A program made the translations under genes and the position numbers. From NCBI GenBank assembly GCA_051313645.2, contig JBNRSN020000003.1, positions 415,338,001-415,402,000 of the forward strand: 64,000 nt of DNA, read 5' to 3'. Of this stretch, positions 38,473 to 40,631 are shown piece by piece (the first letter of the stretch is position 1; every line of letters begins with the position of its first letter). This DNA comes from Centroscyllium fabricii. Lineage: Eukaryota. The notes under the pieces were generated by a model that was not told where the DNA came from, did no database searches, and worked only from the letters and a program-made list of their open reading frames with translations.

Positions 38473-40631
38473 CTATAGAGAGAAGAAACGAAAGGACCCC
38501 AAATAAGTTTAATGGTCCATTAAATTGACTTAAGAATATAAGGTTCTGTTACCATAGATCTTTCCAGATTAGCCATTCAATTTCAATTTATTTATTTTTC
38601 TTGTATGTATCACCTTCTTTACATGCATCACCTACTTTTATTGAGCCAGCTGATAATACCTCAGCATTACATTTAATGCTAACCATTACAAACTGTGTAA
38701 CTCAACAGTATTTGGAAACTTCAATTTTTATCCACATCTGTCCCCATATTGTATTTTTATTGAAGCACTGGAAACAACTGTGTAGCTTTGAACATTTCTT
38801 TACATACTACTTCTTAAACTAAATCTTATCCTGATGAACACAAATTTCATTTTACTTGCAAAATAAATTTGTTAGAGATAAAATTTGGCACAGTGGCAAA
38901 ACATATCGGAAGGTCAAAACTATGTCAAACAATTACTAAATGGGATAATAAGGGTAGCTGCAATTCTGCCAATTCTATATGAATACTAAACTGAGGCATC
39001 TATTTAATTCAGGTATTTTAAAGCAAACAGCACACAAAATAAACCTGTAAACACTGGAGCAGGGTTTTTCCATTATATAAATTCACTACACCAATAATAG
39101 TTTCTCCTCCCCCAACCCCCTGCACCCCCTCAGAGATAACTTATATTTTCTCTCTACTAAGTGCCTAAGCCATGTAACAGAGTATTTCGATCTTTTAATG
39201 GAATATTATGCCAGATTTGGTGATCAGCAATGATTGAAGCGGGGACCTTTAATGCTGGATCAATTTGAAAAAAAAACTGAGGAAAATAATTTCAACTAAA
39301 TATGTATAAATACGTTCTTTGACATTAGCTGTAGTGTCGGACATTAATTGTTACACCCCAGTCTCTCTCTCGCTAGAGCCAAGAGTGTCTTCAGGAAGTT
39401 ATAATGTTAGAGCACTTAAAAAAAAAAAAGGTGGCGCTTGGCACATTTATTTGGGCAGCAAATCCTCACTACAGATTTACACCAGTTATTCTTCAGGAAA
39501 CACTTGATTATGCTATCTATACTGCAGCAAGACTGAATCGAAATCTGATGCCGTCCAGAGAAAAAATCAGTTGCAGTTTATTTGAATAGCAGATCTGGAA
39601 AGATCTATGGGTTGTTAATTAATGTTATTTGGTTGAATACTAAGTTCTTGTGGCCTCACAGAATTCTACGTAATCTAGACAGATTTCTTATTCTCAATTT
39701 TAATCTTCATTAGAAATCACAAAGCAGCAACAGTGGGTGTTTCAACAGCACCAGATGACTGAAGTGCAATTTCTCAACATGCAACAGCTTACAAAGGCAT
39801 TAAGACACTTTCAACCTACAGCCAAGAAAACAGCCGTGTGAAATATTGTTTTGCATCACATCCAGACGTTGGAGAAACACAGGGCCTTTATGTGAGAAAT
39901 GATGACAATGATCTCTTTATAAGGAGATAACATTAATTTGGACCCAGTTGAACGCTGTTGCACACTCAACTGACAAAATATGAACTGCAGTGTTCAGGAA
40001 TGATCTTAGAAACATATCAGGTAAGTCATTTCAGACACATGCCAGCTGTAACTGGAATAGCAAACTTTACAGATTTATATTTGGAACTGCTGTGATGATA
40101 CTCAAACTGCTCACATGTGCAGCCCAACTCAGGCTCCAAATAAATCTTACACTCGCTTGTCACCATTTTCACATAAGACTCATTCAAAGCAACAGCATGG
40201 TGCCAGTTTCTGTGATTAAATTGAGCTTATTTTAGTAAGTTATGGAAATCTGTCAGTATTGTGCTAACATTTAGAAATACATTAAATGTGTATCACTATA
40301 CAACAAAGGTACAAGAACATTCACAGGCTGCTAAAAGCTGAAGTTAATTTATATTCCTTCCCAGTATTAAACATTTAATTATTACAATAAAGTGTGGTGG
40401 AGTCACTAAATTAAATATCCCTGAAAGAGTACTTTGAAAAAATTATTAAATTGAAATTAGTGTTGGCTTGCTTGGTGTACCAGAAAAATACAATTAAAAT
40501 TAAGTCTTTAAAATTATGATATACTCGGTGAGAATACCAATGCTGTTATTCACCTTGAATATTTTTAATTTGCCAGATTTAATTGAAGATTAAACACTTC
40601 CCTCATTTTAGCCTCAACCCAGTTAAATCAG

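Follow-up and report, generated by a model that had tools for sequence, protein, structure and literature searches.

The STRBP gene of Centroscyllium fabricii carries, within one intron, two arms of 29 nt each that are 90% complementary and lie 1001 nt apart. The complementary pair, which is predicted to form an RNA duplex, is a real, single-copy element, probably maintained by selection, at a choice between alternative last exons. Our preferred, still tentative reading is that it may well act as an RNA bridge that tunes the choice between the two last exons of STRBP. All positions given here, unless assigned to the ILF3 locus or to another sequence, are those of the window, i.e. the whole 64,000-nt stretch of DNA that was analysed, and the features discussed are listed in Table 1.

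The identification of the host gene as STRBP, proposed in the initial annotation, is upheld by the dsRBD exon, which is 90–94% identical to that of annotated shark, ray and chimaera STRBP. The same annotation placed the duplex in the last intron, beside the terminal exon. The exon starting at 38472 is a last exon, but the intron upstream of it is not the last one in every isoform, because a second last exon starts at 31014. The existence of two alternative last exons means that the duplex has a choice to act on, and that, of the two acceptors in competition, it is the nearer one that the duplex immediately precedes. Contigs of relatives, presumably derived from RNA, document splicing to the nearer exon: all four runs compared show the junction between the penultimate exon and the exon at 38472. 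For the farther exon, the evidence of use is database annotation; all 31 of the 31 residues of its tail agree with annotated isoform tails of chimaera and sharks, and the tail also occurs in 21 bird records among the 120 proteins listed. In nine cartilaginous fish species, annotated isoforms with the one tail and with the other occur side by side. The farther exon is transcribed 7.5 kb after the nearer one. In bird STRBP records, the penultimate exon is followed by many other annotated tails, of which the most frequent has seven residues. Five bird-specific tails were sought in the window after each AG that lies downstream of this exon, and no convincing match was obtained.

Table 1. Features of the STRBP 3′ region in the window
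Feature	Position	Strand	Remarks
STRBP penultimate exon	42152..42196	-	shared donor at 42151
Conserved intronic block	39574..40262	-	downstream edge coincides with 5′ arm; UGCAUG at 39783-39778
Weak outer helices	39679..39697 with 38530-38549	-	predicted; not significant alone
5′ arm of long-range duplex	39582..39610	-	two AG dinucleotides (39606-39605, 39596-39595); adjoins AAUAAA
Looped-out segment, 1 kb	38581..39581	-	much diverged or unalignable in relatives
Conserved 28-nt island in loop	39449..39476	-	aligned in two relatives, flanks unalignable; donor-like GTGAGG and start of AATAAA
3′ arm of long-range duplex	38552..38580	-	CUAAU at 38572-38568; A38570 faces C39592; partly under chimaera read-through model
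Nearer alternative last exon, coding part	38390..38472	-	GLPGK... tail; stop 38392-38390; 3′ UTR runs on downstream
Farther-acceptor hairpin, 5′ arm	31095..31131	-	predicted
Farther-acceptor hairpin, 3′ arm	31000..31039	-	predicted; pyrimidine tract, AG (31016-31015), first 15 exon bases
Farther alternative last exon, coding part	30920..31014	-	GGFFID... tail; counterpart of ILF3 NF90-type exon

On the STRBP sense strand, which is the minus strand of the window, the predicted structure consists of 18 pairs, a 2 × 2 internal loop (C39592–A38570 and U39591–U38571) and nine further pairs that include a U39588–G38574 wobble; 27 of the 29 arm positions are paired. We could therewith reproduce the two complementary segments about 1 kb apart, with their 18 + 9 pairs, as first described. 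The duplex with its flanks has an energy of −43.5 kcal/mol on the sense strand, its pair probabilities are mostly 0.93–1.0, and the helix is retained when the whole 1361-nt segment is folded, in the MFE structure as well as in the centroid. The distance of 78 nt from the end of the 3′ arm to the AG of the nearer last exon (38474–38473) and the location of A38570 opposite a C were likewise verified. Two other claims did not hold. The G–U wobble had been read as a sign of selection on the sense strand; the antisense duplex reaches −39.6 kcal/mol, and the argument is symmetric and cancels, because the C–A mismatch of the sense strand turns into a G–U pair on the antisense strand. The outer pairing suggested between 39678–39715 and 38505–38548 amounts, taken alone, to −12.5 kcal/mol, a value equalled by 30% of 1939 random pairs; parts of this extension are predicted to form once the core helix is present.

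Of 2000 shuffled versions of the intron (dinucleotide shuffling), two reached an exact inverted match of 18 nt. After repeat masking, and homopolymer runs aside, no exact inverted match in the window exceeds the 18-mer of the duplex, which occurs exactly twice in the 7.2-Gb genome, both times as one of the arms. The region 39400–39800 has a single genomic match, and repeat masking leaves the arms unmasked. A multicopy transposon origin is therefore unlikely, in line with the first description, in which the sequence could be assigned to no repeat. The Rfam search of 28000–44000 returned eight sub-threshold matches, none of them at the arms. Metagenomes were scanned with a peptide pattern for vertebrate STRBP orthologues (203 pattern matches, 0 confirmed) and with the 18-mer (32 loci, none with homology reaching the STRBP flanks).

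Repetitive sequence is found elsewhere in the gene. A palindromic, MITE-like multicopy insertion occupies 40630–40870 of the same intron and is absent from three of the relatives compared (joint 40631–40883); it gives sub-threshold Rfam miRNA matches and resembles an element at L007 554–764. Between the two last exons, the GC-rich stretch 32851–33400 (minus strand) folds strongly (z −3.7 to −5.5) and is probably a repeat. Long reverse-transcriptase/endonuclease reading frames, presumably LINE-type, lie inside an STRBP intron at 48938–51500 (minus strand).

Conservation was assessed in cartilaginous fishes and counted over whole alignment pieces, not single bases. On this scale, the piece containing the 3′ arm in run X21 differs at 1 of 139 positions and the piece containing the 5′ arm (39574–39769) at 5 of 196, against 94 of 844 in the five other long intron pieces listed for this run (Fisher p = 4e-6 for the 3′ arm and 3e-5 for the 5′ arm). 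In run X19, the block 39574–40262 has 41 differences in 689 positions versus 208 in 2028 (p = 3e-4); an 833-nt piece with the 3′ arm has 83 differences, whose positions within the piece could not be placed. The alignment ends at 39574, 8 nt past the 5′ arm, in both X19 and X21, and most of the next 300 bases are unalignable in relatives, except for a 28-nt island. The chimaera gene model P0123, which covers the 3′ side only, reads through the intron: four of four residues match, three of them inside the 3′ arm, followed by 22 of 25 up to the acceptor. Other parts of the intron also align to relatives, at 40089–40631 (a long low-gap piece in run X13) and at 40883–42179. The arm pieces are less diverged than the other intron pieces in X21, and both segments lie in conserved sequence at the level of pieces in X21 and of the block in X19; but conservation does not single out the arms, because it extends over about 650 nt beyond the 5′ arm and over the whole acceptor region on the 3′ side.

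The bridge that we favour would work as follows. The helix would close once the 3′ arm has been transcribed, looping out 1 kb of RNA with five AAUAAA hexamers, and would thereby dock the conserved intron block of about 650 nt, UGCAUG included, beside the nearer acceptor, at a distance of about 80 nt. How often the nearer exon is chosen before transcription reaches the farther one could then be set by proteins on the block or on the helix, with an effect in either direction, while the acceptor of the farther exon would be buried in a predicted hairpin of its own. The UGCAUG, which we take to be an Rbfox-type motif, lies about 170 nt from the 5′ arm; the motif is common locally, with 11 occurrences in 19 kb.

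Kalmykova et al. 2021 (PMC8052449) have described PCCRs in general and also RNA bridges, those of ENAH and RALGAPA1. Judged on its sequence, the STRBP duplex would qualify as a PCCR, having stable predicted pairing, conserved segments and no multicopy repeat origin. The ENAH and RALGAPA1 bridges resemble the STRBP duplex in consisting of a conserved intronic complementary pair spread over a kilobase, with one arm near the regulated acceptor, and the energy of the STRBP duplex is at least as strong as that of the −20 kcal/mol examples given there. In contrast to those bridges, the exon in STRBP lies 78 nt and the UGCAUG about 170 nt from the arms, which is outside the 50-nt rule used in that paper to call bridges. 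The regulated exon is, moreover, an alternative last exon, unlike in ENAH and RALGAPA1, and the ENAH-type cases documented there rest on protein binding and knockdown, whereas ours rests on sequence. STRBP does not occur in the main text or in five supplements of PMC8052449, although the human orthologue may be contained in its three large supplementary files. Taken alone, the duplex is one more example of a well-described class.

A rather unlikely alternative is that the helix serves mainly, as in Drosophila Nmnat, to conceal premature poly(A) sites together with a cryptic last exon; the loop and the 5′ arm offer some support for it. Five of the six intronic AATAAA hexamers start within 38596–39582, in the loop or at its edge (binomial p = 0.007, for a test chosen post hoc), and 3 nt separate the first of them from the end of the conserved block; the loop is, however, AT-rich. 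The 5′ arm buries a weak possible acceptor, the AG at 39596–39595, with UUAAC 21 nt upstream; splicing to it would give a tail of five residues with the stop codon inside the AAUAAA that abuts the helix. Against its use, the pyrimidine tract is only 7 nt long, no joint into either AG of the 5′ arm was found in any of the four runs of relatives compared (whose contigs drop rare forms), and the five-residue tail is absent among the chondrichthyan isoforms listed. Bird tails starting with DL.. or DVNLSRF were considered as products of a 5′-arm acceptor and rejected as not significant; those in DL.. could not be linked to it, their score of 20.5 ranking third in 11 kb and falling short of the median maximum under the null (24.5). 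Precedents exist: PCCRs are reported to block cryptic splice sites and to surround 3′ ends (PMC8052449), and the stem in intron 4 of Nmnat (Raker et al. 2009, PMC2724269) and the loop-out of the FGFR1OP2 terminal exon (PMC8052449) resemble our case in being long-range and intronic and in their association with alternative acceptors, poly(A) signals and distinct C-termini. In both of these cases the stem encloses the alternative acceptor or exon, whereas both annotated last exons of STRBP lie outside and downstream of the loop; within the loop or arm there are only unannotated AGs and AAUAAA sites. In the four runs, which leave room for rare use, the STRBP stem neither encloses nor masks a used acceptor or terminal exon.

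It is unlikely that the arms, even if they pair, lack a regulatory role and go back to an old inverted micro-duplication or to a coincidental match within two regions whose conservation has other causes. Such an origin would agree with conservation that is broader than the arms, and the value from the shuffles, p of about 0.001 for one intron, carries modest weight in a whole-genome scan. The idea fits poorly with pairing at 27 of 29 positions, with the end of the conserved block directly behind the 5′ arm in two relatives and with the placement of the helix 78 nt from an alternative acceptor.

We also regard it as distinctly improbable that the helix is chiefly a landing site for STRBP, for ILF3 or ZFR with ILF2, or for ADAR at A38570, leading to auto- or cross-regulation. 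ADAR prefers an A opposite a C, which is the geometry first described at A38570, and a second predicted dsRNA element, common to ILF3, covers the other acceptor; on the other hand, the yUnAy motif would survive editing of A38570. STRBP regulates splicing (PMC10943486), ZFR/ILF2 binds such duplexes, and ZFR targets are rich in PCCRs (bioRxiv 10.1101/2022.06.15.495552; PMC10790352); autoregulation of STRBP through the duplex would thus be plausible. Against ILF3 in this role, ILF3 targets were not associated with PCCRs (bioRxiv 10.1101/2022.06.15.495552), and ILF3 eCLIP signal is depleted within CCRs (PMC8052449).

Finally, repression of the nearer exon through masking of the CUAAU in the 3′ arm, pointed out earlier as branch-point-like, is very improbable: the branch A of this yUnAy (38569) is predicted to be paired at the end of the 18-bp helix, but it lies at −97 from the nearer acceptor with AGs between them at −89, −75 and −58, better candidates are found at −48 and −32, and CCRs tend to avoid branch points (PMC8052449). 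When the 5′ arm was blocked in the folding model, the accessibility of the −48 and −32 candidates, of the pyrimidine tract and of the AG was barely altered. Masking is unlikely because, in this model, the nearer splice signals hardly depend on the 5′ arm, and since they stay accessible, a bridge fits better than a mask.

The acceptor of the farther exon is covered by a predicted hairpin (z −6.3, 0 of 200 shuffles as stable). In the same genome, the ILF3 paralogue has the same predicted fold over its NF90-type acceptor (ILF3 locus 6240–6371, plus strand; z −5.2), and 17 short ILF3 isoforms of sharks and rays are annotated as ending in the exon concerned. Compared by position, the two hairpins have a 14-nt exact intronic match at the same place and the same pairing register, with several one-sided changes. 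A pattern derived from the shared hairpin arms finds only these two sites genome-wide, a result in which the presence of the sites is circular and their uniqueness is not. Among 11 acceptor windows of STRBP and ILF3, two of the ILF3 ones being 1–2 nt off the exact acceptor, only the two hairpin sites scored below −6, the rest ranging from −2.9 to +0.5. The score depends on framing, because a blind scan in 50-nt steps cut the hairpin and placed it at rank 12 of 261 (z −2.8); pyrimidine tracts, it should be added, pair readily with purine runs.

Two further features were noted at the ILF3 acceptor. The purine-rich hairpin arm has a second possible upstream partner, complementary at 17 of 18 positions (ILF3 locus 6150–6167, 6267–6285 and 6321–6338), which could, as judged from the sequence, compete with the pyrimidine tract in the manner of a selector/docking switch. 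Tandem acceptors 6 nt apart are present at the NF90-type exon (6345–6357), and among annotated isoforms there is a two-residue difference ahead of the tail, consistent with the use of both.

ILF3 has the alternative 3′ ends NF90 and NF110 (PMC9982275), so that STRBP resembles its paralogue in having alternative C-termini, and the farther STRBP exon matches the NF90-type exon. The arrangement differs: in ILF3, the NF90-type exon precedes its competitor, the long NF110 tail, whereas in STRBP it comes after its competitor, which is an exon specific to STRBP. No counterpart of the 1-kb duplex was detected in ILF3, where the best match between the duplex region and the ILF3 intron had an E-value of 0.30. 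In the literature on STRBP and NF90/NF110 that was searched, which left most subscription papers outside, we found no description of the duplex or of the acceptor hairpin.

The same searched literature yielded no explanation of the choice between NF90 and NF110 in ILF3, or of the purpose of the two conserved STRBP tails. The STRBP locus presents two precise and mutable RNA elements, one at each alternative acceptor and one of them common to the paralogues; structure-based control and feedback by dsRNA-binding proteins are therefore directly testable with small minigenes. A wider scheme, which we put forward as speculative and rather unlikely, is that STRBP and ILF3 choose their tails via dsRNA elements in their own pre-mRNAs: a hairpin predating the STRBP/ILF3 duplication would bury the NF90-type acceptor in both genes, STRBP would have added a second last exon governed by the duplex, and DZF proteins would read both elements in a family-wide feedback switch. 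If true, such a switch would also explain the NF90/NF110 ratio.
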